Of a stretch of DNA of 53,850 nucleotides, positions 5,401 to 40,000 are shown piece after piece. Position numbers and translations under genes: made by a program. Source of the stretch: Lama guanicoe (taxonomy: Eukaryota); contig MU053352.1 of assembly GCA_013239625.1 (NCBI GenBank), positions 1,001,079 to 1,054,928 on the forward strand, written 5' to 3'. The stretch's first letter is position 1. Each line of letters starts with the position of its first letter. Below the pieces are notes generated by a model, which was given only the letters and a program-made list of their open reading frames with translations, was not told the origin of the DNA and did no database searches.

Positions 5401-8400
5401 TCAGAGCTTTCTTTGTATTTAATTTCTAAAGCTTTAAAGGGGTCTTTGCATATCTCTGGCCTGAAATTCCCTGGCCCAGACGACCCCAAGGCGCCAGCTG
5501 TGGGCCTCCCTTGGCAGCAGGACACTGTTCTTTGGGAACTCCAGGTGGGGACAGAAGTTGGGGCCCTCTCAAACTGACGCACATCCTCCTAGAAGAGAAG
5601 TCTGGGGTCTGGGTGACCTGGTAGAAGGCACTTATTCTCTGGGCCAGATTCCCCATCGGTTATCACCCCCATCTTACTTAGGCAGAGGCACAGAGCTCAG
5701 GAAATGCTTGTGTTCAGACCCGTCCAATCTCAGGGTTAGAAGCAAGTTTAGGGCTGTTGTCTCACCTCCACGTGCTGCACAGGGCTTGCCCGGGTAATTC
5801 GCCGCTGGGATTAGACCAAGATTGTTTGATAATAAAAATTCTCATTCTTATGAGAGCTAACCTGTATTGAGTGTTTACTAAGGGCAGGACTCTGCACACA
5901 AAAAGCACATACCACGTCCTCTTTGTGCACTAATTATTCCCAGACTCCTCCATGGGCTCTGTGCTGGGGGTGGGGGTGCACAACTGCCGTCCTCACTGAG
6001 TTGCAGGTAAATAACTTGTCTGGGCCCCGGGCTGGAGAGGGGGGAGCTGGGTTTCCACATGTGGAGGGTCTGCCCCCTCCCAAGGGAGCTCTCTCTCCAC
6101 CCCTGTCCCATCCGTGTCCCATCTCAGGGATGCGGGGGTGGCTCGGGTGAGGGCCAGGAGGTAGGGGTCTCACATGAATCTTCCATGATCCTGGGCCTTC
6201 TTCAGGACGTCTTCCAAGGAGGAGCCAGCAGGGACAGAGATGGACTGTACGTATGGAGAAAGGATGCTGGAGACCTTCAGCGTGACATGGATGACCTCCG
6301 GGACTTGGGTCTGTGAAGAGGTCTCCATAGCTGGCTCCAACGTGACTGTGTGGAGGAGAGGGGAAGCGGCAGCTGGTCTGAGAGCAGGGGGCCGGACGTC
6401 AGCTCTCCTTTCTTCTCTAGGAGACGCTGTGGCCCCTCGGCACCTCTGTCTTCCCTGTGGTCCCATGGCAGTCAACACCTCCACCTCCTGAGCAGCTGGA
6501 GCCTGGCTGCCTTTCCAGCCTCCCCTGTCCCCCAGCTCCCACATCCTCCGGCTGCCCAAGGTCAGGCCCCTCAGTGATTTCTCTGCCTCCAGTATCCCCC
6601 CCTCACCTATCTGCCACACAGCAGCCCAGAGGGCTCTTTCTAGAATGTATATTTGTTCATATCAGCCCCTGTTCCCTCTGAGGGTCTCCCCTCCCGTTCA
6701 CTCTTCTGCCCGCTGCTCCAGCTCATTCTCCCAGACTCCACTCTTTAGTAAGCCCCTTCTCCCAATTTCCAATCTTGTCTGCCTCTGCACCTTTGTTCTT
6801 GCTGCCTGCTCTCTGCTCTGCCTTCAGAAGACTCTTATCCGCTGGCAAATCTCACTTGCTGACTGCAGTCCCTCTCCCAGATGAAGCCTTGATTCAAGGA
6901 GCTGGGACTCATTTGTTATGATGTATCAGAGCTGAGCAAAGTGTGTCTCTCCCCATTCACCTTCCATCCATCCATCCATCCATCCATTCCTGTCACATGA
7001 GGGGCTGGAGATTCATGGCCTGCCCAGAGCTCACCATCTGGTGTCTCACTCCCCACACTCTAAGCTTCTAGACTCTATGACTGCATCTTAGCTGCCAGTG
7101 TGTCCCACACCTGCCTGCAAACCCCTACACGTTAACTCAGCGAATCTGGACTAAGCGACCTCCCCTCACTGGGACATGCAGACTTCAAGGCAGATTGAAA
7201 AGAATAGGGCTTCTGTGAAAGGCTCGGCTACCTCTTGGTGCCTGGCAGTCTGGGAAGATGAGATCCACATAGCTCTTGCGGTTCAGGACTGGCAGCAGCT
7301 GAGAAATCATCATAGGATTCCGGAAGGTCTTGTGCTGCAGGCTGGCCAACAGAGCAGCCTTGGCCTTGAGGCATGCTGCGCCCAGCTCCACCGTGGGTGT
7401 GCGTGAGGTCATCAGCAACTGGTGACAGAATGGGCAAGAAGAGGAGGCGGGGGGTCAGCCAGCCCTGTCTGCTCCACCTCCCACCAGCCCCCAGGGTGGA
7501 CCATGGCCCCATGGCCTCCTTCCTACCTGCAGCGCCAGAGGGGTACTGTAGACGTTCCCGAAGTGGCCCTCGGGGGTCTGGGCCTTCAGGATCTTCTCTT
7601 GTACCCTCCCGAGGGCCAGGGTGATCCGGTCTCTCTGACTGGGGTTGAGGTTGGACAGCTCCAGACAGGAGAAAGCCAAGCCCGCCATGGCCACGGAGTC
7701 TAGCAGGGGACAAAACCCAGTGGGGTCAGGCCTGGCGGGACCTTGGGGCAACAGGCAATCACAGGGGGGCTTGAGGAAGGGGGCTGATACGGTCAGAGCA
7801 TGATTTCAGAAAGTTTCCACCAGCTAGGGGGACCAATCAGCCCCGTTTGCCCACTTTCCGGGACGGCAACCTGGGATGGTCGGTCACCCTATTCCTGTCT
7901 GCCGCCTGGGGGTCAGGGGTTAGGGAAAGAGCCTGGAGAACAGAGGGCAAAGAGGACTTTATCCTACACCACTCATTCCCCAAGCTGCCCGCACTTTGGA
8001 ATCACCAGGGGATTTTAAAATGGGCAGATGCCTGGGTCCACTCCAGGTGGTCTAGTTTAACAGGTCCAGGGAGCTGCTTGGGCTCTGGGGGGTTTTAAGC
8101 TCCCTGCCGCAAGGGGATTTAATGTATCCACAGTGCGTTTTCTGTAAGCCTCTGGGGCAGAACAAGTCCCTGCTGGCTTCTGCTCTCTGGGAACCTCCCC
8201 TCCCCACCTCTGACCTCCTCCAACCTGCCTCCCCCCATGCGAGGCACGCACACTCCAAGAACACAGCCAGGCCTAGAAGAGACCCTGACATCGCGATGAC
8301 AAGGAAGGGCACTGGAGACCCGAGGTCACACAGTGAGCTGACCCAGAATCCAGGTCTCAGGCACATCCCAGCTTATCTGATGAGAACATCGTGGCTGGGT

Positions 8401-11400
8401 GTCCAGAACTCTCTCCCTGATGGGCACCAGGCTGCGCCCTTTACTTATAAGGTATCTTTTATTGAGCTGCTGCCGAGGGGTTATTTTACCAGAGCAGCTG
8501 CACCAGAAAGGCCAGCTGATTTGTCCACTGGGACCTACAGCAAGTGTGTGATGGAGGGCAGGGTCAGGGTCTGGTCCAGCTCCACTGCGGGCAGCGCTGT
8601 GCCACAGTGAGCCCTCCTGTGACACTTCTCATGGACTTGACAGGGAGAGGTGAGCAGGGCCTGGGGGCAGAGGCCTTCATCTGGGGTGGGGTTAGAGGAG
8701 GGCCAGCCTGGCCTCAGAGGAGGGGTGTAGGGGGTTGGGGGTGGGGTCTGGCTCACTCACCCACAGAGAGGTGGGCCTGGCGGAGATGCCCTTCATGCTC
8801 CACGGCGTACAGGAGCTTGCCCACCACGCTGTCATGGACCCGCTTCTGATGGAGGCACAGGGCCAGGATGCCCAGGCTGTACTGGTAGTAGCTCGTGTGG
8901 GGGTGGCCCTTGTGATTGTGCCCTCGGGGAGAAAACCACAGGGTGTGGGCATCATGCTGGGCCTGAGGGGCTGCCCCTCTGCCCTCTCCCACAACCAGCC
9001 CTGCCAGCACCGGACCCATTGCCTACACCGCCCAACACCCTCCTTTAGGTCGTGGGATCCTTCTTGCCTTCATTCCCTTCGCCCATACTTGCTGAGACCC
9101 CGCTGTCAGGCACTGTGCTTGGAGCATGAACACAGTGACGGCAGGCCTGGCACAGTGCAGCCAGGGCCTCCGAAAATCACATAACCCAAGCTCACAAGAC
9201 CATGAATTGTGGACCAAGGTCCATGGGGCCGAGTAACAGAGGTCTTTGAGTAGCTGGGGAGTTGGGGCAGGATTCTCTGAGGCAGTGATGCTGGGGAGGA
9301 AGGGTGAGGAGAGCTAAAGGTGGAGCTAGAAGGCGAAGGAGACCTTCCAGATAGAGGGAACATATGGGAAGACCCTGGCTGGTGAGCTGAGAGGCCAGTG
9401 TGGCCGGAGCCCATGGAGGGGCAGTGGAATGGGTAGGCCAGAGGGTGGGTGGGCAAAGACTGGAGAGGAGAAAAGGGCAGGCAGGCTGGGCCTGAGGGCT
9501 GTGAACACAGCAGTGAGGAGCCCCTGCAGTGTTTAAACAGCTCTAACAAGATCAGATTTGTATTTAAAACGCTTACTCTGTGTATGCTCGGTGGAGTCAG
9601 GAGGAAGGAAAGTTAGGGAGAGAGGCTGAGGAGTGAGTAGTAAGGAGGCTGCGCAGTTGTCCCAAAGGTGGAAAATCAGGTCTATTTTGGTGCCTGAGCA
9701 GCAAGACTTGCCAACAGAGTGCATGTGGGGTGCAGGAAAGGCTTGATCAAGGGTGGCTCCTGGGGGAAGCCTGAGCCTCTAGGTGGATATCGAGACAGGC
9801 AGATGGAGGGCAGGAAAGAGGCCTGGGGAGAAAACCCAAAGTTCTGATGTAGATGCTTCACCAGACAGTGTTGTCTGGTGAGCCCTCCCCACCCTGGCAG
9901 ACCCCATCTCCTCACCAATGGCCCCCTTCTCGTCCTCCAGGAACCGCTTCAGCTGTGACACCAGCCTGTCCCCCTTGCGGCCTCCGACAAACTCGCAGTT
10001 GGCCCGGAGAGCGAGCAGGTAGAGGGCCAGCTGGCCCATGGAGGGCTTGGCCTCAGAGTCACTGTTGTCATTGCCAGAGGCAGACCTGGGACAAAGGCAG
10101 TTAACAATACTTCTGTAAGAAAGTACCACCCTGGTAAGCCTGGCTTGGGGGGCTCCCCAGCAACATTACAAAGAGGAAAAAAAATCCTAGGAGTTGGAAA
10201 GTTTACTAGACCTGCCAAACGTAGATCTAGTCAGCCTTGTGCGTTGTGAGGAGTATGCCATGCGTATTTCATAAAGATGGAAAATTAAACTCAAGAACAA
10301 ACTCTGAGGGCTCTTGCATCCAAATGACCTGTGTTTGCCCCACCCTTTGGTCACACTTTGCCTGTACATTCTCCCTTTCTTTCCTCTCCCTGCCCTGCGT
10401 CTGCTTCTCAAGAGGGAGTCCAAGCGGGAGATGCTCTATGGTGGTCCTGACCCTTCACCTCTCATTCAAACTCCCATGCTGGACCTCAGAAGAGGCCTCC
10501 CCTTAATGCTCCCTGGAAAGGGAGCACAGATAGTCAGATGCTGCTTCTGGGCTCGGTATGAAAGAGTGCAGTCATAGATTAGTGATGGCTGCCGCAGGTA
10601 TAGGAAGGTACAGCAGCCACGCAAGGGCCCTAGATCAGCATCTCCAATCTAGTCAAAACAACCTCATTCTACGGATGGAGAAAGGCCCAGAGAAGACAAG
10701 ACTTGCCCTACGGTCTCCCAACAAAGCAGTGACAGGAATGCAGGCCTCCAGTCTCTTAGGATGTGGAACACGTGAGGGAGGAGAAGAGAGAATGAGGCAG
10801 CACCTCAGGAGGCTCTGCTGGTAGCTGAGCTTGAGGCTGTGCAGGTAGTGGGCCTCCTTGGCCCCAGCTTGCAGGCTGGAGAGGCGCAGGCCCACGTAGA
10901 CACTGGGGTTCAGGTGCTCCAGGGAGAGCCGGTCCATCCAGGGCAAGAGGCGCTGGCCTAGCCTCTCCACTAGCTCGCTGTCCACCTCCGTTATTTCTTA
11001 GGGAAGAGAACAGGCCAAGTGAGGTCGCAGGGCCAGGCCATCAGCGACGCCTTACTAGGGTCTTCTCCAGGGAATGAACATCTCCATCCTACCTCCACAC
11101 GGCACACACCCTACTCGTATGGGGGGATCTGGCTGGAATGAGAGGCGGCCGGTGAAGAGTGGGGGAAGCAGACGTCCTGAGTGGCTGGAGGGGGCAGGGG
11201 GAGGTGGTGGTCCCAGGACCCACTCTGCCCACCAGCAGTGACAGACTGGATTCTGGGCAGTGTAGGGGGTCCCAGGCCCCAGCCCCACCTCCCTAGGTCC
11301 TCATGCCAGCGCTGTGACAGAGGTACTGCCATCATCACTTTGCATGAAAGAGGAAGCACAATTCAAAGCTATGGGCATGTTCCACCCATTTACAAAACTT

Positions 11401-23854: not shown

Positions 23855-25449
23855 CAAAGTTCAAAAATAGGCAAAACTAAGGTATGACGTGGAAAGTCAG
23901 ATTAATGATTGTTTTTGAGGGACAGGAAGTGGAAGGGTGCACTACCGGGAGGGCTCCTGGGTGCTGGTCATCTTCTGTTTCCTGAGCTGGGTGCTGGTTA
24001 TATGAGTGTATTTGGTTTGCAAAAAATAATCAAGCTATAAATCTATGACTGGTTGCATTAGTCTAGATTCTCTAAGAGCAGATGCCAAATGGGATAAAAT
24101 GTGCATAGGACTGACTGGGGAAAATTCTGTATAAAGGGAGAGGGAACCAGAGGAACCAAGCCCTGGTCTTTCATTATCGGTCTGCAGGGCACTCACACAA
24201 CTTGGCAACAACCAATCCACCTTCTTTATCTTCATAGGCATTGTTCACCACTCTTCAGTATCCTTCAAATACCGCAATCAGTGCACCTGACACAGACCTT
24301 CCCTCCACTCGGATATTTTCCCAGGTCACCACCAGTGAAATCTTTTGCAACTAAGCTGCCACCTTGCACCATGGACTCTCTATGCCCACCTACCAACTGG
24401 GCTGGCACCTCTGTGCTTGCCAAGCTGTGAGTGAGCCAGTTTCGGATGCCCATTTTATCACGCGTTTAATGGTCTAAGGACAATTACTAGTACCATTTGT
24501 ATTACCTATGTTCCGCAGTAAGCAGATGCCAAGACAGGGTGAATGTGCAAAAGTTTTTTGGGAAAACGTCTATGAGGGAAATGGAAGGGAGCTGGAAGCT
24601 GGGAAAGCAGGAGTCAGCAATGTAGGTCTGACCCGTTCCCTCTGCAGGGGGCCTGAAATGTGCATTTCATGGCTAGCACATTTGTCCACTGTTCTGTACG
24701 CCTGTTATATTTCAATAACAAGATCTTCAAAGTCAGTAAGGAGGAAAAATTTAAATAGACAAGGAACAAGCTTAGACTTTTGGACACAGGTAGAACCTTT
24801 CACTCAAGGGCTCCTGAGATATTCCTAGGTACCAGGTGCTTCACATGGTCATCTCACTTACTCCTCCCTTGAAATGTGGCTACTGTGATGAAGGGACTTA
24901 ATTTTTACTTGATTTTATTTTAAATTTACATCGTCACACGTGGCTGGGGGCCATACTGGATGATGCAGGTTAGAGGCTTCATTCTTCATTATTATTACCC
25001 CAGTAACAATCCCAACACCTTAATTTTTCCAGCACTTCATGGTTTACAAAGCATTTTACTATATTACTCTTCCATGATCCTCATGGCATTTCTTTTCCAA
25101 GACTCTGTGGGGAAATGTAATCTCAGCAATGAACAATGTGAAAAGGAAATTAAGAAAAGTTGCAGTCGTCACCTTTCCCGATTTCAAAACCTACTGCAAA
25201 GTGACTGTGAGCAAAACAGTGTGGCATGAGGATATACGTATAGACCAATGGGACAGAATTGAGAGAATGGAAATAAACCCTCAAATATACAGTCAGGTGA
25301 TTGTTGACAAGTTACCTGTGTCATCATCTTTTTTTCCCCGCTCTCTTCAGAGACGATGTTCATACATTTATAAAACTGTTCAATTATCTCGTCACATTAT
25401 GCATTCCACCCTGGGATTCCGCTGACCCCCAAAGTGTTTTTTTTTTGTT

Positions 25450-26005
25450 TATCTGCATACATAATTCAGTCTTTGTGCTGTGACATTCTATGAGTTTTGG
25501 CAAATGCATAGGGTCATATATCATCCCAGATAGAATAGTTTCATCACCTAAAACACCCCTGTGCTTCATCAATTCAACCCTCCCTCCTCCCTCCCATTGA
25601 CCTTCTGTCAACCATTGATCTTATAACTGTCCTTAGTTTTCCTTTTCCAGAATGTTATAAAACTAAAATCTTGCAATACGTAGTATTTGTAGACTGGCTT
25701 TTTTTTTCACTTAGCAAATATGCATTTAAGATTTTCCATATCTTTTCATGGACGATAACTCATGAAACATACCACTGTGCGTTTACCCATTCATCGATTA
25801 AAGGACACCTTGGTTGCTTCTAAATTTGGACAATTATGAATAAAGCTGCTATAAATATTCCCAAGGAAGTTTTGTGTGAACATTTAGTATTCACGTCAAT
25901 TGAGCAAATACCTAGAAGTGTCATTGTTGGATTGAATGGTAAGGCCCCATCTATCTTTGTAAGAAATTGCCACACTGCCTTCCAAAGTGGCTGCACCACT
26001 ATTAT
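25450..26005 (-). mobile_element. Old L1 3' region (L1MB/ME-like)
   Basis: TTTACCCATTCA...TTGGTTGCTTCTAAATTTGG...ATGAATAAAGCTGCTATAAATATT...TTCCAAAGTGGCTGCACCA antisense L1 motifs. Confidence 0.8.
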
Positions 26006-26243
26006 CCATTTTTTAAAAACAATTTAAAAATATCTAGATCGACGACTCTATGCAGTTGGTGTTGCCCTCATTTTACACGCGAGGAAGAGAGGTACAGCGA
26101 GGTGAAGTGGCCTGTAGCTTGGCAGTAAGACCAGGTGTGTCTGCCTGCAGCCTGGGTTCTTCACCACAATGGTATTGGAGGATCGGTATTTCACAAAGCA
26201 TTCCATGAGTGGGCGGCTGTAATGGTTAAAAATCTCTTCCCTT

Positions 26244-28804
26244 CAGCCCGGAATCCGGCGGCGACGGGAGCGCTGCGAGCGAGAGGTGCGGAGGGGAGGG
26301 CGGGCGACTCTGGCAGTGACTGTGGCGGCAGTGATCGCCCCGCTGTGGGAGGCTATGGGAGCGCGCGCATCCTCTGGGTATCCAGCGCGCGGCGGCTCGG
26401 AGTGACCTGCCCCGGTGCTGTAGGGACAGGCCATGGAGCAGTTACTCGCTGAAGACCCCCGGGACCCACTGGTCTTGGCCCGTGGCTCGCCGTGCCTCTC
26501 CCAGGCTCCGAGGGCGCGGAAGAGGAGCCGTACTCCGAAGCGGGAGTAGCAGCATGGGGACAGGGGGAGGCGCTGGATAGGCGCGCCGGTGGCTCCCTTG
26601 GCTAGGGCTCTGCTTCTGGACGGCGGGCTGCGGCTGCCCGAGGTAAGCGGCGGGCTGAGCGAGCGGGGCGATTGAGCGGGACCTGCAACCATGGCGCTGG
26701 CCCCCGAAGTTACACCCTGCACCTCTCCGCGCGCCGAGCCCAACGGGACGGGACTCGGGCGGAGGACCTCCGAGGAGACCACTGCCTCCCACCCCAAGTT
26801 CGCGATCATCGTCAATCCTACAGGTTGCTGGGACGGGGCCCCTGCCCTTCCTTTACTCTGGTCGCTTGCTCCATTTTCCAAGCCCTCCCCAACTGCTGCA
26901 GACTGGAGTCCCCACCTCTTCACTCCAGTCTCGCTCTCCCCAGACCTCTCCACTTTCTTCCGAGGCTAGATCGTTCGTGGATGGGCGTCTGTAGGGGTGT
27001 CTGAGAGTTCCTGGGGAGAGGGGCCGGCTGATGGGAGTCTCTGCAGGGGAGGCTTGACTAGAGAGGTGCCTTTTCCCTTCGGTAAGCAGCATCCAGGCTG
27101 AAGTCCTCCAAGCTTGACACCCCTCCAGCGACACCAGCCTGAGGTCCTAGGCAGCAGTGGGCTTCCTTTGGAGGAGGCCGTGTGTGTACGGGGAGCTCGG
27201 GAGAGCTGCGTGCACCATTCGCTTTTAACTGCGCCTGCAGTGCCCAGCCGGGTCAGCAATTGGTCCCAGGCGGCTCACCCGGAGCCTCCTCTCCCTGCCC
27301 GGTGCCCGACCCAGCTCGCGAAAGCGGTGTCCGCTGAGCGGCAGGGAAACCACTGCTTCTTTCTGACTTAGAAACGTAGACCCCATTTTTCCTGGATCCT
27401 CTGGATTCCAGAAGAGTGAAATTTTGCAGCTGGTTTCAGCTCCACCTTGAGTGAAGACAGAGCACATCAACTTAAAGATAAAACCCGCAGACTTGTTTTG
27501 AAGATGATCAGAGACAACGTGACATATAGCTTTACCATGGAAATCGTCAGGGAGCTTCTCCTTCCCGCTCTTCTTTACCTTTTCCTGGGTGTCATACATT
27601 AGGCTTAGCATTTGTAATTGCATCAAATGATTCACCTAATGCTTGTCTGGCGAGAGGTGAAATTGATCTTTCCACCTCACCTCTGCTCTGCTGGCTACCT
27701 TGAACATATTGTGAGTAGCTAGGAGACAGAAAAGGGCAGAAAGGGGAGAGGACGATCAGAAATGAACCAATATAATCTCATTTTTATAAAAAGCTACCAG
27801 TGTGTTAAAAGGAGTTGTGCTGTCTGAAATGAACAATTTAAAAAAAGATGGATAGAGGCTTTCCCTTTTATGATCCTATTCAGTGGCTATTTACATTTCA
27901 TTTCCTGTGAAGTTTTTCACCCCCCACAATGGAGCAGGTTTTTTAAAAAGCAGGAAAGGTTTAAAAATGAGCTTCAGGGATTGACCACACTAGGTTACAG
28001 TGAAGCAGAGTTCTTTTGCTTGCTGGAAGAAGCACCAGCTTCAGCCATTTATTTTACTACAGAGGATGCCTCCTTGCAAAGTCAGCTCTGAGTTGTTTTT
28101 AATACACTGTCATGGGGGAAAGGGGGCCTTTTCTTTTCTGAATGTTGAGCTAAATGTCTGAGTCCCAACTTAACTGTTCTCTGCTGAATACCTAATGGTG
28201 ATTGACTCCCTGTCCTGACCCCTGGAATTTGGTTGATGGGGCTGTCTTGAAGCCAGCTTGAAACCAGAGTGAAGGGGACCTGCCAAAAGCCTCTTAGATG
28301 GAGCTTTGCTGGCTGTGAAACTAAGGCTAGCACCTCTTGTCTGCAAGCTGTTCTTCAAAGGACTCCTAGAAAACATACTGCACACTCTGCAGGCTTATTT
28401 ACAACAAATGTCTTGCACAGATCGTAGTAATGTTCAGGACACATGGAATGGAGCAGTACATCTGACTAATATTTCCCATGTAATATTTTACTTTCTGGGG
28501 AAGGAAGCCCATGACCCTTAGCATCTGTCAGAGATTCCCCAAGAAAGGAACGGTAAGCAGCCTGGAAATCTTGAGAAGCCCATGCACCTGGCTTTGGACA
28601 GTTGGATGCAATGGGAGTTTTCAGAACAAATGGTGTGTTTCAATGTTCCTTAAGTTCTCCCAGCCCAGGAAGGTTCCCATTCCTTAAAAGCCAGAAGAGG
28701 TGCACTCTGGGGACATGTTTGCTGAGTAGTCTTACCACACTCTCAGCGTTGGCCCTACATTGTTCTTACATATGCAAATAATTTTTTTTTTTGTTCTGAA
28801 AAAT
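26244..28804 (+). pseudogene. UNC5D: Retroposed fragment of UNC5D (5'UTR, disabled exon 1, start of intron 1)
   Basis: 26554-26642 reads [23 protein letters not shown], then after a frameshift AAAR(G) followed by GTAAG, matching the UNC5D signal-peptide exon ([22 protein letters not shown]). Flanking direct repeats AAAAATCTCTTCCCTT (26228-26243) and AAAACTCTCTTCCCTT (28805-28820). Confidence 0.82.
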
Positions 28805-29186
28805 AAAACTCTCTTCCCTTTACAGAACTAAAATCTGCCTCACTTGGTCCTGGAGTCACATTAACAGTTTCCACAAAACAGAGAGAAGGGAACTGAGTGT
28901 TGGGTGCCCCGGCCTGTCCACAACTCATTAGGCAGTGGCATGTGATTTCAGCAGCAGGCCCTGCGACAAGGCTGCCTAGTCAAAAGTCCGTTTTCTACTA
29001 CTCATCAGCTGAGTGACCTTTGGGTGAGTCTCTTCCCTTCCCTGAACCTTAGTTTCCTCACCTATAATACCTGGTACCTATTTTGAGTTCCAGACCTGAA
29101 AGTACAATTACTTTCCTAGACACCTCCACCCGTGTCTTTCACTGACCCCTCCAAATCAACATGAGCAAAACAGGGTACCTCCTGTG

Positions 29187-29350
29187 CAGAACCAGCTACA
29201 AGATTTGCAAGGGCGCAGCGTGAAATCAAAGTGCAGAGCGCCTTCTTAAAACATTAGGAAGAATTCAAGACAGCAATGGAGCAGTAGATCAAGCACAGGG
29301 CCATGGGTGACTGGGCCGGCCAGGTCACACGCCCCATGACACTGGCCTTG
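29187..29350 (-). mobile_element. MER45-like hAT-Tip100 element
   Basis: Right end CAGGTCACACGCCCCATGACACTGGCCTTG is the reverse complement of a MER45-type terminus. Confidence 0.5.
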
Positions 29351-30199
29351 CTCCTGTGTTCCTTTGATGAACCAGCCACTGCTGTCCCCTTAGGTCCTTC
29401 CCTCTCCTCTTGCCCGGTCACACCCTCCATGCTCCCATCATAATGGACTTCTGTCATTCTCTGAATGTCCCAAACTTTTGCCTCTGGCCTGGGTAATCTT
29501 TCTCCTTTCTCTTTGCCAGCCCCTCTCCTTTTATCCTCAGATCGTTTCTGAAACACTGCACGGTCTTCTGCTGTGAGCACCACATGACCCTAGTTTTCCT
29601 CACACCTCTCTGGCAAATTCCTTCCAAGTCTTCACAAGCTCGCTGTCCCCAACCTGGTTTTCATTTTACTCCATTTTTCATTGTTTGTAGAATCACTAGG
29701 TTTTTATTTTGTTTTAGCTTTAATTGAAAGTAGATAATAAAAAATGCATTGTTCAAAACAAGCACGTTAGTCACTGCTTAAAGTCTGTATCTGTCTCTAA
29801 AGGGTAAGTTCTATGACCATGAACTTGGGTCCGGTCTCATTCACAAGGACCTCAAATTTAAAATTTAGAGGCAATCTCCAAATGGAGTTGAGAGGCCTGA
29901 AGGAAGAAAACATCAAACAACCTTACAAAATTTTGTCTACTTCCTAGACCACACCACCTTGGTGTGACTATTTGTATAAATCTTGTAATTATCCTTTGAG
30001 GAACACAATAAGGAATCTGCGTACATATATTAAAAGCTCAAACGCGTTAAACGTACATTTAAAAATACACCACGAATTCTGTAACTCTACTTGGCGTTTC
30101 GTCAGTTTTCAACCTACCGCTAAGGCTCAGAAAGTAAGTGGTCTCTCAGGCCTCTCCACCTATGTGAGGATAAAAGCCTGCTTTTGCTCTATTTATTCC

Positions 30200-31080
30200 A
30201 GTATCAGCGAATGGACCAAAGGAAAAGCCAACGGCCAGCGGCGAATTGAGCGCAGCCTCCCTTACCGCCCCTGGTGGCCGCTTCTCAGTCAAAAGAACCA
30301 GGTTCCAACGACACCAGCAACCGTTTCCGTGGCAACGCAATTCACGCGGCCTCACTGAGGAGTGCGGCTCCTCTCTGCATCCCAGAAGGCGCTGCGCTGC
30401 CTCTAAGCCTTCCGCCCCCTTCCATCCCAACATGCAATGGGGCTCATGACGTCAAACGTTCGTTATCAGGATGATTATAGAAATGCCTGAATAGCCGCCT
30501 TCGCTTAAACATTAAAAATGTACGTAATAAGCTCATGTGTAAGAAAAGTCCCAAAGAGCGGCCTTAGTGATTTTTCCAGAGGTTTTAGTTTTAAATCTTG
30601 ACAAGAAAATCCCATCTTTCCCTAGATTCTCTCAGGCACCTCCTTGGGCAGCCCGCGCAGGCCGGCAGCGTTGGGACCTCGGGGTCCTAGGCAGGGCACA
30701 TGCGGGGGGAAGTGGCGCTGTCTGTCCGCGCGGCGGTTGTAAACCCTTCAGCGTGGAGCCATGGGAGGCCTAGAGAAAAAGAAGGTGAAGAGCGAGAGGC
30801 CTCGGTGGGAGTGTCGGTAGGGGGGTGCTCCGGGATGTAAGAGACAGGACCAGCAGAGCCTGGGGACTGCCCCTTTCCCCAGCCTTGGTCCCTCGTAGGT
30901 GTAGAAGCGGCTGGGATCAATGCGACATGAGACAGTAGCCAGAAGGGGTCCAAAGGTGGGCGAGGGCGGCAGTTACTCCTCCGGTGAAATCCAGGATAGA
31001 ATTCTAGAGTAGAGCTGTGTAAGAGAGTTGAGGTTACCAAGCAAAGCTGCACGCCCCCAGTCAGGCCGAGCCAAAAGACC
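30200..31080 (+). promoter_or_regulatory. PES1 CpG-rich promoter
   Basis: High CpG density around exon 1; X-box-like GTTTCCGTGGCAAC 30323-30336, CRE TGACGTCA 30447-30454, CACATG 30697-30702, ETS GGAAGTG 30708-30714. Confidence 0.75.
30761..30784 (+). CDS. PES1: PES1 exon 1 (coding part)
   Basis: GCCATGG Kozak; MGGLEKKK; donor GTGAAG. Confidence 0.93.
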
Positions 31081-34000: not shown

Positions 34001-37000
34001 CACAATAATGATGAAAGAGTTTTGAGATATTGTGAGAATTACCAAAATGTGATACAGAGACGTGAAGTGGGCAAATGCTGTTGGACAGTGGTGCCAGTAG
34101 AGTTGCTCAGTGCAGGGTTGCCTCAGACCTTCAATGTATAAAAAAAAAACTCCATAAAATGAGGTATGCCTGTATGTGGCCAAAATGTTGATTTCTCAGG
34201 GAGACTTTTCCTGACTCCTCTTGCTGAAGGGAGTGCCTGCCGGTGTGGCCCCTGGCAGTATCCTGATGTTTCTTTCTGGTACTCAGGACAGTCTGCACTC
34301 TGTTTTTCAGGGAGCTCATGATTATCAGACTCTTGCACCAGGATGGGAGTTCCTTAAAGTCAGGGCGCCCATGTTCTGTGTTCCCTGCTATTTCCAGGCC
34401 CCACATGGCCAGCACTCAGCACAGGTACTGACAGAAGGAATGGCCTTTGTTTTTCAGACGGCTGTGCATCTTGAAGGGCATTTATCCCCATGAACCCAAA
34501 CACAAGAAGAAGGTTAACAAGGGCTCCACGGCAGCCCGAACCTTTTACCTTATTAAAGACATCAAATTCCTCCTCCATGAACCCATTGTCAACAAGTTTC
34601 GGGAATACAAGGTGAGGCCTGGGCTCTGGGGGTCTGGGTGGGGCCCTTCGCTGCTCTGTGCAGCCCCACTAACACTGACCTTGGGCAGATTGTTTAAACT
34701 CTGAGCAAGCCTGTGTGAAGGGTGAGGTAATTCTACCTCAAAGGGATTGACTGAGATCTCAGGTGTGCAGATCATTTCCACGGGACCTGGCCAATGGTTA
34801 ATGTTTCACCTGTCATACTTTCCCCTGGTTCTTTTGGAAAAGAGTAAATTTGTTGCCTCTGAGACAGATTGTGGTCTTTCAGGGGTTCTCTGGTAGTTTT
34901 TCTTTTTTTTTTTTTTTTAAAAAATTTTTTTTTTTTTTAAATGGAGGTGCTGGGGATTGAACCCAGGACCTCACACATGCCAAGCATGTGCTCTACTGCT
35001 GAGCTCTACCCTCTTCCCCCATCTCTGGTGTGTTTTCTGCCCAAAGAAACCCCTCCTATTTGGGTTCTTTTTCCCGAGACCAAGCTTTTCATTTTGCAAA
35101 TAGAAACCGTTAAATGCTTAACTACCACGGGAAAAGTAGATGCCTAATTCTACCAAACCGAATGCAAATGATCGAAGCCTTTGCAGAGAAGCAGGGCCGG
35201 GCTGGGGGGCCTGCTCACCAGAGCCCACTAAGGCGGGTGCCTCTTCTGCTGCTGGGTTTGGCGGCCACTAAACTCACCACGTGGGGAGTGGGCCCCCGTG
35301 GGACTGGCTGCCTCAGAGCTGCTGCTCTGACCCCAACGGAGGTGGCCTCTGAGCCTCTGAAGAGCACTGAGGGCAGGCCTGACCTGCAGCACTCGGAGGG
35401 AGAAAGTCAGTCGGTTTGGAGGACTTTTGGGGCCCCCACCAGCCTCGGCTGCGTTTTCCTGTGTGGCTCAGCCCCACACATGCAGACTGGTGTGAGAACG
35501 AAGGCCCAAGCCCCCGGCTCTGAACTGCCTCACTCCTCAGCTGGAGAATAGGGCTGAAAATGTTATACCTCCATGTAAATAGGTGGAGTCAGCACGACTG
35601 AGTGGGCATCCCTGTCCATCCATCGCTGGGGTGCTGTGGGCGGGCTCGTCTTCAGCCTGGGTCAGGTTTGCTGCTCCTTGGAGTCGGCTGTTGTGCAGAT
35701 CCTGGGCTGGGGGCCGGGTCATACAGGCAGACAGCGTGGTCAGCTGCAAGCGGCCTCGTGTGTCCTCCTGCCCTGGGTATTCTCCTGCACCCAAGAGGGT
35801 CTCGTCCTCTCTTCCAGGTGTTTGTCCGGAAGCTGCGCAAGGCCTATGGGAAGAGTGAGTGGAACACAGTCGAGCGGCTGAAGGACAACAAGCCCAACTA
35901 CAAGCTCGACCACATCGTCAAGGAGCGGTGAGCAGGGGGCTCTGACCTGGTGCTGGGGATTTGGTGGGAATGAGACCAAGACCCCGCTCACAGAGCTGGC
36001 ATCCTCTTGGAGGAAGCAGGCTAAAAGCAAACTGGCAAGTTTTTCTAATGCAATTCCATGTGTGTGCCGTGAGGGATGCCAGCCTTGAAGGGAACTGGAG
36101 GACACACGTCAGTTACAGGCTTGTCAGAGGAGATGTCTCAGAGGGGAGCCATTTGAGCCAGCCAGGGGAAGTGTGGTTCATGCTGTGCAAAGAGCAAGTG
36201 CAAAGGCCCTGTGGTGGGAGAGAGCTGGAGTTCCGGGGTACACATGGGATGCATGATTAGCCCTGGAAGACGTAGCTGGACACCTCTGATCTTAACCTTT
36301 TTCTTGCCCAGCCTTCTCAGCAGTCCCCCTCATTCATCGGCTAAATCAGTGGTTCTTAGCCTGGGGTCATTTTGCCTCCCAAGAGACACCTAGCAATGTC
36401 TAGGGATGTTTCTGTTTCTCATGACTTGGATGGCAGGGGGTCTACTAGTATTTAATGAATAGAAGCCAGAGGTACAGCTAAACACTCTACAGTATAATAG
36501 GACAACCCCTACGGCACAGAAAACCTGGCCCAGTATGTCAGTAGTGGTGAGGTTCAGACACCCTGGACTGCCTAAAATCTCTTGTCTTCTCTTGGGGTCT
36601 GATGGCCTGGGAAACTTAGCTCCAGACTGGATGGATTTGACTCCACCCTGGTCCCCTAGGGCAGCTTCAGCCTTTTCCCAGCTGTCTGTTCAGGAGATGG
36701 TGGTGGCGGGTCCTGACCCAGGGAATGGGGCCTTGGAATGGCTAACAGGCTGGGGCCAGGAGGTCAGAGCCTGGGCTGAGTGACCCCGTGAGTGCTGCCT
36801 TCCTGGCCCCGCAGGTACCCAACATTCATAGATGCCTTGCGGGACCTGGACGATGCCCTCTCCATGTGCTTCCTCTTCTCCACATTCCCACGGACTGGCA
36901 AGTGCCACGTGCACACCATCCAGCTGTGCCGCCGGCTCGCTGTGGAGTTCATGCACTACGTCATCGCTGCCCGTGCCCTGCGCAAGGTGAGCCCGGGGTG

Positions 37001-40000
37001 CCTGGGAGGCCCCAGCCTGCTCCCTGCCCTGCCGCCCGTGTTCTCACCATGCTGTCCCTCCGCCGCAGGTCTTCCTGTCCATCAAAGGCATCTACTACCA
37101 GGCCGAGGTGCTGGGGCAGCCCATTGTGTGGATCACGCCCTATACCTTCTCCCACGATGTGAGTGTGCCCGTGGGGTGCAGGGGGGTGTGGGGGTGCGGG
37201 GCCGGTGCTCCCTCTCTGGTCCCTAGACAGAGATGAGAGAGTGAGGGGGGTGCTTCCTGTCCTGCAGAGAAAGCTGGGCTCCTGAGTGCTGGCCGGAGGG
37301 TGGGGAGTGTGTTGTGCACCATTGTAACAGGAGCCAGAGCCCGCCTGACTCCAGACCTGCTGGCTGGTTGACCTTAGACGTGTTCCTTTACTTCTCTGCG
37401 CCCCAGTTAATAACATGTTTCCATGTTCTAAGCCTTGTCGTGAGGATCTAAGGAAAAAAAGCTTTAGAAGTGCCTGGTGGTTGGCCCTTGGGGTTTGCTG
37501 AGCAAACAGGGAACAGCTGTATCACTGGACTCCTCTGCCCCCCCATTCCCATCCCCGACCCAGGGCTGGGGGCTGCGTGAGATCTGGGGGTGAGCATTGA
37601 GTGGCACTACTTAGGGATACTGCTTCTTATTTATCTTTTTTTCAGACTGTGGCAATATTTGGCCGGATCCATTGAGAGAAATCCAGGGTTGGCCTCTGTA
37701 TGGGGGGTGGTTAGCCTCTAGTCTCCCACAGGGTCCCCGTCAGGCTCCCCTCCTACTTACTATGCTGTGGGTCTGTTTGGCCCCGCTTTCTGCTGAGAGT
37801 TGAGCAGAATCTGGTGCCTCCGGTGGAGAGCAGGTGCACCAGCCTGGCTGGATGGTGGGTTTGCTGGCCAGGGGGTGGGTATCCAGGTTGAGCTGGTGGT
37901 CTGGGGGCCTTGGGACCCTGCCCATTACTCTGGGCTGTTGGGGGCCCGGGCTGGAACCACGTCTTAGTGTGGAGCAGTGGTGATGTTTGGTGGCAGCCTG
38001 CGGTCTCTGTGGGAGAAAGGCGGGTGTGGTCCTCAGCCGCTGGCGTGCCCACTCCCTGGGGTGGGTGTGTGTGCCAGAGCCTGTGCTCTCCCCTTCCCCT
38101 GTCCTCCCTGCCTTCCCTCCTTCCTCTCTGGCCCTCCCTCTCCTTCCTTCTCTTTGATGTCCCACCCCTGCGCTGCTCAGACTGGTCTTTGTCCTCCCGG
38201 GTGGTGAATAGGGCCCTGTGGAAGCCGGCCTCCGCACAGCTGGCCCTGGGGATCAGGGGAAGGGAACAGGCCGCCCCTTCCTCCTTCCTTTCTGGCCAGC
38301 TCACTGCCACTGCTTCCTCTTAGCAGGAGGATGGGGGACCGGTCCTGAGTTGTCGCTGGGGCCCCAATATGCCCCCTCCCCCGGTGCAGCCAGTGCTGGG
38401 CACCCGGCAGCATGACCCAGGCAGGTAGTGGGGGCCAGAGGGCTGCTCAGCACTGTGCTGGGGGGGAGTCGCTGCTCACGTGCTCCTGGGCGTGTTGAAG
38501 GCCCTGGCAGATGCTCGTGTAAGGACTGGGGGTCGTTGGGGGACAGATGGGGCACCTCTCCAGCCCTGCACCCCCACAGCCCAGTTGCTGCCTGATGGCA
38601 GGATGGAGAAACAGCTCAGTGTCACGGGCGCACAGGCACCGAAGGGTTATTGTGAACGTTACCAATTTTGACGTTGCTTGACACATCCTCCTGTCCAGGT
38701 CCCTGGAGTTGGCAGGCCTCCCTGGTTTTGGGGGCGGTGCTGCTTAGGCATCGAGGCACTTTGGTCTCGGTCTCAGATCCTTGCCCTGTTTTGCTTTATC
38801 GTCTCCAAGGTTAAGGACGAGCCCCCCGTGCCTCTTGCTTGCTCTGTGCTTCTGCCCCAAGCAGGCAGCTCTTCTGCCCATTTCTCCAGAGCTCCCTGGG
38901 GCTGAGCCAGGCAGCTGCCCAGCTCATCCCCGGTCCTCGGGTTGTGCCTTTGTCTCTGGCTTGGCCCCAGGGCAGGCTTGCTGGATTCTGAGTGTCTGTG
39001 CCAAGGCTGCTGCCAAGGCTTGTAGGCTCTGAGTGCCGTCCACCCACTGCCCCCACCCAGGCAGATGGACTGTTCCAGGGCTGCCTCTCCCAGCTGGGCC
39101 TCCAGGTGCTTGTGGGCTAGCCCTGGAGGCGACATTATACGAAAATTGTGGGATAAGTAATGGAGGAGGCACTAGCGGCCTCTGGAGGGACAGAAGTCTG
39201 ACTTGCAGATTGAGGGGGAGAGCTGGGGCAGGGGAGTCCTGGAAACATCGTGTCAAGGGCTTCCCTTTTCTAACACCTCTTGTCCCCTTTATGGCATGGG
39301 GATCGGGCTCTGGCCTCCAGGACACCCCTAACCCTTGGGACCGTGTCTAGAGCCTCACTGGTGCCCAGAATACTCCTGGGTGGGGACATGCCACATGGCC
39401 TCTTCCCATGGGCAGAGCTCTGAAGACAGGGCCACCTTGAGTTGGGGGGTCCTGATCCTTGGGCAGGCAGAACCCCCACCCTGCCTGGGTTGTCAGTGCA
39501 GTCTTTGCACCCACACTGCTGATTTGCCTCCTGTGTCCCCAGCACCCAACAGACGTGGACTACAGGGTCATGGCCACCTTCACCGAGTTCTACACGACTC
39601 TGCTGGGCTTCGTCAACTTCCGCCTCTACCAGTCCCTCAACCTGCACTACCCACCCAAGGTAGGCCCGGCCCAGCCCAGCACCTTCTCCTCCCCCAAAGG
39701 GGCCCTGGCCTTTCTCTCCCCACATGGAGGTGGGGGCCGAGGTGGGAGCAGTGGGCATCCTTTTTCTCTGACCTTCCGCCTGCCTCCCAGCTCGAGGGTC
39801 AGCCCCATGCAGAAGCGAAGACCAGTGAGGACACTTATGCTTTGGACTCCGAAAGCTCTATGGAGGTGAGAGAAGCTGTCAGAGCACGGGCCCCGCCTCC
39901 CCCAGAAGGGTGGTTCCTGGTCTGGGGCTGGGAGTGGTCTCAGGGCTGGTCTTTTGAACCCAAACCTGCTGATATCCATCCCAGAACTGTCAGTGCCACC

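Follow-up and report, generated by a model that had tools for sequence, protein, structure and literature searches.

What is a CpG-rich block that reads like the start of the netrin receptor gene UNC5D doing in the intergenic DNA between TCN2 and PES1? The question is raised by a stretch of 53,850 nucleotides (nt) from the guanaco, Lama guanicoe (assembly GCA_013239625.1, contig MU053352.1, positions 1,001,079 to 1,054,928, forward strand), which we call the window and in whose numbering coordinates are given unless a scaffold or locus is named. An original prediction, made from the sequence alone, had seen there a retrocopy of UNC5D RNA mediated by LINE-1 (long interspersed nuclear element 1, L1). 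Our analysis supports that proposal: a 16-bp target-site duplication (15/16 identical), a GGTT/AAAAA target, a short A-rich tail and a 3' end that coincides with a poly(A) site make the 2.56-kb block, with high probability, a LINE-1-made semiprocessed retrocopy (retropseudogene) of the UNC5D 5' end.

The block announces itself by its composition. At window position 26244 the GC content steps from 0.37 (25501-26000) to 0.58-0.66 and the CpG observed/expected ratio (o/e) from 0.30 to 0.75-0.84, exactly where an abrupt start had been predicted; this CpG-island-grade composition tails off past ~27350 into ordinary DNA. A search of the 2.05-Gb assembly with 26244-28804 returned two places only, the block itself and C5475:8282337-8284921 (+), at 90% identity (92% over aligned bases, ~90% with gaps counted). 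The match formed a single high-scoring segment pair (window 26233-28795) though 1.5-kb flanks had been included on each side, and neither flank of the block matches the parent scaffold C5475. Homology running into the flanks without relation to transcript landmarks, the mark of a segmental duplication that the prediction had named among the findings that would refute it, was therefore not found; the homology stops at the direct repeats that bound the block.

The second locus is the first exon of UNC5D, in keeping with the predicted origin and the predicted colinear second copy. The parental exon runs over 36 codons from ATG to GAG/GTAAGC, and its translation equals the first 36 residues (36/36) of netrin receptor UNC5D of Vicugna pacos (P0001) and differs from Camelus UNC5D at one residue. 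When the exon was used as a protein query, lengthened by four upstream codons to reach the 40-residue minimum, 108 of the 120 proteins listed were named netrin receptor UNC5D or UNC5, 11 had no name and one was 'uncharacterized'. A genome search with the UNC5D protein found exon 1 alone on C5475 (C5475:8282646-8282783) and exons 2 onward on C7217 (-) at 5714400-5932041. On C5475, exon 1 points outward at a distance of 100 kb from the scaffold end; on C7217, exon 2 faces the scaffold end, from which it is 180 kb away. The two scaffold ends are thus compatible with one UNC5D gene whose first intron would be at least 280 kb long. A search for the ZU5 domain gave no match on C5475, because exons 2 onward lie on C7217; as an argument against UNC5D this absence was dropped once those exons had been located. 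UNC5D itself is divided over two scaffolds in this assembly, and a 171-bp match to its exon 2 (89%) also lies on the small contig C27002. Separately, at C55230:34017115-34017879 a match of 255 residues to the UNC5D ZU5-UPA-death region runs on unbroken, without an intron (40% identity, one TAG); it could be a large exon of an UNC5-like gene or a retrocopy of a paralog.

Both ends of the block carry the marks of target-primed insertion. The left copy of a direct repeat, AAAAATCTCTTCCCTT (26228-26243), and the right copy, AAAACTCTCTTCCCTT (28805-28820), agree at 15/16 positions, or 16/17 counting the preceding T, at precisely the predicted coordinates. The pair is the best direct repeat within 25500-29500, and each copy adjoins an end of the homology between block and parent locus, an arrangement that is not explained by chance. 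GGTT stands directly before the left repeat, giving a target of GGTT/AAAAA; the consensus target of the L1 endonuclease is TTTT/AA. The block itself ends in GTTCTG followed by AAAAAT (28799-28804, + strand), a poly(A) tail remnant at whose place the parent continues CAAGCCTTTTCATG, and the right repeat follows. The TT before the left repeat had thus been recognized correctly, as part of GGTT, while roughly half of the predicted A-rich remnant 'AAAAATAAAA' is the right repeat itself.

The telling feature is the position of the 3' end. In the parent locus (L002, 5.6 kb), the stretch from the start of homology onward (L002 1489-5585) has a single AATAAA or ATTAAA in sense orientation, at L002 4067. 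Copy and parent cease to match after a CA in the parent (L002 4098-4099), 26-27 nt past this hexamer and just before a T/GT-rich stretch; in the copy the hexamer reads AATAAT. The copy would accordingly end at a poly(A) site within intron 1, and a 3' edge at a CA after the only poly(A) hexamer suggests as template an UNC5D transcript that had been polyadenylated within the intron and not spliced. Read from left to right on the + strand, the block comprises 310 nt derived from the UNC5D 5' untranslated region (UTR; 26244-26553, 91% identity to the parent, the part of the island upstream of it not copied), an exon-1 coding remnant of the signal peptide (26554-26642, 89 nt vs 109 nt in the parent) and unspliced proximal intron 1 (26643-28798), from the GTAAGC donor to the parental cleavage site.

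The 5' edge is less sharply defined. The parental CpG island spans L002 ~1000-2750 and the homology starts at 1489-1502, inside it, 310-320 nt before the ATG; ~450 bp of island upstream of this point are absent from the copy. At the junction the left repeat resembles the parent: its final 11 bases agree at 8/11 positions, or 10/14 with the next three bases, which we read as microhomology-assisted joining of the end of the complementary DNA (cDNA). An edge joined by imperfect microhomology sets a lower bound for the transcript start and is no proof of the transcription start site (TSS). Of the colinear match expected at UNC5D, exon 1 and proximal intron 1 were recovered as foreseen. An open reading frame (ORF) across the junction (26129-26449) matched no protein at E <= 0.001 among 12 candidates, which is no evidence either way. 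The join leaves some room for an orphan transduction or read-through transcript, in which transcription began at an L1 or some other promoter further upstream and continued across the UNC5D promoter and exon 1 to the intronic poly(A) site, the RNA losing its 5' end on insertion, since microhomology of this kind also occurs at truncated L1 insertions and the copy's edge is no proven TSS. We consider such an origin improbable. The edge falls inside the CpG island and leaves a 5' UTR of plausible length (310 nt), and none of the 24 ORFs of at least 80 residues in the 10 kb upstream of the parent matched Pfam, L1 domains included, a weak argument that misses decayed elements.

Set against the diagnostic list for retrocopies in section 4 of PMC3449122, the block shows all items of that section except the absence of introns and the 5' boundary. 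The upstream part of the promoter was left behind; the parent has a poly(A) signal and the copy an A-tail remnant; a target-site duplication accompanies an L1 endonuclease-type target; and a single dispersed copy stands at a new location (C697 vs C5475). As to the boundaries of the transcribed region, the 3' edge agrees with the poly(A) site and the 5' edge is the microhomology join described above. Ancestral introns, which an L1 retrocopy should lack, are represented by 2.16 kb of intron 1 after an intact GTAAGC donor, and we therefore class the copy as semiprocessed (unspliced) and not as processed.

These landmarks suggest the following course of events. A transcript from the UNC5D CpG-island promoter would have been left unspliced at the exon-1 donor; ~2.2 kb into intron 1, at the first AATAAA there, it would have been cleaved and given its poly(A) tail. 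The L1 ORF2 protein would have nicked the bottom strand at GGTT/AAAAA in the TCN2-PES1 intergenic DNA, whose single-copy, pre-insertion form would be AAAA[A/C]TCTCTTCCCTT, and primed on the poly(A) tail. Reverse transcription would have proceeded at least to ~310-320 nt upstream of the ATG; the second strand may then have been joined via an imperfect 11-14-nt microhomology (TCTCTTCCCTTCAG vs parental TCTCTGCTCTGTAG), and fill-in would have produced the 16-bp duplication.

Whatever its route, the copy is a pseudogene. The frame from the ATG at 26554 reads as an UNC5D exon-1 remnant, as had been predicted, and the GT of the exon-1 donor stands at 26643-26644 with GTAAGC intact. Relative to the parent, however, the remnant is interrupted by TAG at codon 9 and by two gaps, one of 12 nt and a frameshifting one of 8 nt, and the stop and frameshift make it a pseudogene; since only 36 codons of a ~900-residue receptor had been copied, it was dead on arrival. 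The predicted deletion of ~2 nt holds against the shorter version found in non-camelid proteins, and fails against the copy's own parent, where it is the 8-nt gap, beside the other of 12 nt. None of the domains of a functional UNC5-family gene (Ig, TSP1, ZU5, UPA and death, in an open frame) accompanies this exon-1 remnant, and neither a ZU5 match nor a match to the UNC5D protein was obtained within the window. Overall, copy and parent differ by 193 mismatches in 2534 aligned bases (Kimura two-parameter distance 0.081) and 16 indels, with a non-CpG divergence of 6.1%.

The copy has an ortholog elsewhere. A search with its 240-residue antisense ORF returned five proteins, the best of which, P0121, follows a single frame of the copy's antisense strand (255/286 identical) and needs frame changes to align to the parent (205/300). 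The copy's frame-shifting gaps recur in P0121 but its 12-nt gap does not, and the stop at which P0121 ends is compatible with the copy's junction. In 195 frame-safe columns of a three-way comparison, P0121 and copy agreed against the parent 25 times, P0121 and parent against the copy seven times, and copy and parent against P0121 six times. These alignments make P0121 the retrocopy's ortholog in another genome, by our estimate ~3% diverged in DNA; the retrocopy is thus not confined to one species, and the insertion would be older than the split between the guanaco lineage and the P0121 genome. The retrocopy reading of the original prediction therefore stands in refined form: the template would be unspliced and end at an intronic poly(A) site, the 5' edge is a lower bound, and the copy extends beyond a single species.

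Several points weigh against this account. The 5' boundary is fixed by microhomology and its agreement with the true TSS is uncertain; the poly(A) tail remnant measures 5-6 bases only, next to a hexamer that is no longer AATAAA in the copy; the intron is kept, which is atypical of retrocopies; and the genomic position of P0121 is deduced solely from the agreement of a stop codon with the copy's junction. Retained intron, very short tail and a 5' microhomology of a kind that also occurs in DNA end-joining are what a DNA-level move would offer, whether the UNC5D promoter region was copied by duplicative transposition, by a small segmental duplication or by repair-patch capture, all without an RNA intermediate. 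We judge this quite improbable. A DNA-level move gives no reason for a 3' edge 26-27 nt past the sole poly(A) hexamer in 4 kb of parent, for a 16-bp duplication that opens with an A-run after TT, for the upstream half of the CpG island being left behind, or for a single dispersed copy on another scaffold. An assembly artefact that misplaced an UNC5D fragment between TCN2 and PES1, conceivable in an assembly of 55231 contigs with UNC5D itself over two scaffolds, is highly improbable given that the copy, with 8% divergence from the parent and 16 indels, is no misplaced parent, that it has a target-site duplication, that P0121 of another genome has copy-specific frames, and that the stretch recurs in sequencing reads: 14 of the 24 listed runs, all of DNA and from six studies of four organisms, contain 0.83-0.90 of 332 sampled 31-mers of 25900-29100 (the run with the highest share may come from the source sample).

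When was the retrocopy made? Assuming equal rates, we place the insertion at ~2.4 times the age of the split from the P0121 genome. Extracts of PMC1939714 and PMC3514880 quote 11-25 million years (My) for the two camelid tribes and 55-60 My for the separation of camelids from other even-toed ungulates, respectively; if the P0121 genome is that of Camelus, the insertion would fall at ~26-60 My, on the camelid stem. An absolute date of ~8 My, calculated from the published camel rate of 2.5e-8 per generation and the 5-year generations given in an extract of PMC8605555, was rejected: it clashes with a copy shared by a ~3% diverged genome, and only the relative estimate was used. The parental exon offers a second clue. 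The copy has kept ARRW where the named Vicugna and Camelus proteins read ALQW and ALRW; ARRW is present in 10 of the 14 fetched proteins, and the L in the two named camelid proteins only and in no non-camelid one. A copy with ARRW was probably inserted before an R-to-L change common to Camelus and Vicugna, which would again point to the camelid stem. The named camelid UNC5D signal peptides (parental exon 1, L002 1870-1918) also have two more alanines than the 12 non-camelid sequences fetched (AAGAAAARG-type). Taken together, the extra alanines and the R-to-L change indicate that the parental exon changed after the retrocopy was made.

The only unusual point of this otherwise ordinary dead retrocopy is its CpG island. 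A CpG island is at least 200 bp long, with a GC content of at least 0.5 and an o/e of at least 0.6; the retained portion (26244-27350) qualifies in sequence, with GC 0.668, 88 CpG and an o/e of 0.71 (parent 0.81). Within it 75 of 98 aligned parental CpGs were kept, as against 7 of 23 in 27351-28797 (Fisher p = 8.9e-5); outside CpGs, the two parts have diverged equally (6.5% vs 5.9%). CpGs are depleted between the copy and the PES1 island (o/e 0.04-0.27), which argues against regional protection. GC-rich DNA loses CpGs somewhat more slowly even when methylated; with that caveat, the simplest reading of the pattern is that the island half has been largely unmethylated in the germline since insertion. 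This retention would fit the idea that CpG islands owe their protection from methylation to their own sequence, and the locus amounts to a natural 'transgene' experiment in which a promoter-less half-island in a new chromosome context kept its CpG content and the co-copied CpG-poor DNA decayed.

Whether the half-island does anything today is a further matter. It shares the orientation of PES1, whose start codon follows 3.4-4.5 kb downstream, and a new non-coding transcript or an alternative first exon of PES1 could make use of its 5' splice donor (26643), which is intact. That the half-island both stayed unmethylated in the germline since insertion and now serves as a lineage-specific orphan promoter or regulatory element seems to us doubtful, with CpG retention lending support to the hypomethylation half of that proposal. 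RNA runs contained smaller shares of the 31-mers (0.27 in X15 and 0.24 in X16, of one RNA-seq study; 0.08-0.18 in X17-X20); these shares permit no conclusion on expression.

The setting of the insertion is as had been predicted, between TCN2 and PES1. On C697 the block is flanked on one side by a Cobalamin_bind gene (7224-11000, -), whose best solved match is transcobalamin II (E 5.7e-29), and on the other by Pescadillo_N exons (34453-39674, +). An MGGLEKKK at 30761, 3.7 kb before the first of these exons (34453), is likely the start of PES1. The block is intergenic, has the orientation of PES1 and ends 1.9 kb before its start codon. Between TCN2 and PES1 just one further stretch, 30001-31000, resembles a CpG island, and it contains MGGLEKKK; the TCN2 side is without a CpG island (o/e 0.14-0.33). 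The AT-rich repeat debris noted to the left of the block is an old interspersed repeat (~25331-26015) that ends ~210 bp before the insertion site; it gave 2674 first-look candidates and 44 other matches in ~40 other places, at 67-87% identity. It seems to resemble an L1 3' end and MIR elements. Pfam returned no matches for 29 ORFs from the intergenic flanks of the window, so the flanking repeat was not named in this way, and an Rfam scan of 24000-31000 matched no family.

The finding adds a pseudogene that lies beyond the reach of annotation by homology, and it explains the stray CpG island next to PES1. The insertion offers a clean marker for camelid phylogeny. It would also be a fossil record that, tens of millions of years ago, UNC5D gave rise to a transcript of exon 1 and intron 1 with its end at one specific poly(A) site in the intron.

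Among known systems, the copy resembles classical L1-made processed pseudogenes in its TT/AAAA target, 16-bp target-site duplication, 3' end at a poly(A) site and missing upstream promoter, but differs from them in that it is not intronless and does not derive from the 3' end of a mature mRNA. Isoforms made by intronic (premature) polyadenylation occur in genes with long first introns. The template proposed here, exon 1 with proximal intron 1 up to the first AATAAA, would have been of that kind, although it is represented at this locus by a fossil DNA copy only. We found no literature linking retrocopies with intronic polyadenylation and, among the papers listed for UNC5D retrocopies or pseudogenes, none that names UNC5D; PMC2584115 contains no mention of partially processed, retained intron, unprocessed or pre-mRNA. 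In its CpG island the copy is comparable to orphan CpG islands and inherited retrocopy promoters, as parental sequence of CpG-island grade at a new intergenic site. According to an extract of PMC4772013, ~3% of expressed retrocopies inherited the parental promoter and many novel retrocopy promoters lie in CpG islands; unlike such inherited promoters, the UNC5D copy took only the transcribed part of the island, and it is known here from sequence alone.

The closest relatives are the semiprocessed or partially processed retrocopies, a known class, as described in the relevant parts of PMC3449122 and PMC5470649, to which the UNC5D copy belongs. The latter describes 'partially processed retrogenes' and remarks in the same extract that intron-containing retrocopies may be overlooked. 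In agreement with this, pipelines that need exon-exon joins or protein homology would miss the UNC5D copy. The former, in the part concerned, gives rodent preproinsulin I, derived from preproinsulin II, as a semiprocessed retrocopy. The UNC5D copy shares with that class the reverse transcription of an incompletely spliced transcript, the direct repeats, the A-tail and the new location. It differs from preproinsulin I in that its template would have undergone no splicing at all and ended inside intron 1, carrying only 36 codons; and whereas preproinsulin I is a complete working gene with upstream regulatory sequence, the UNC5D copy is a pseudogene that arrived between TCN2 and PES1 without the upstream promoter.

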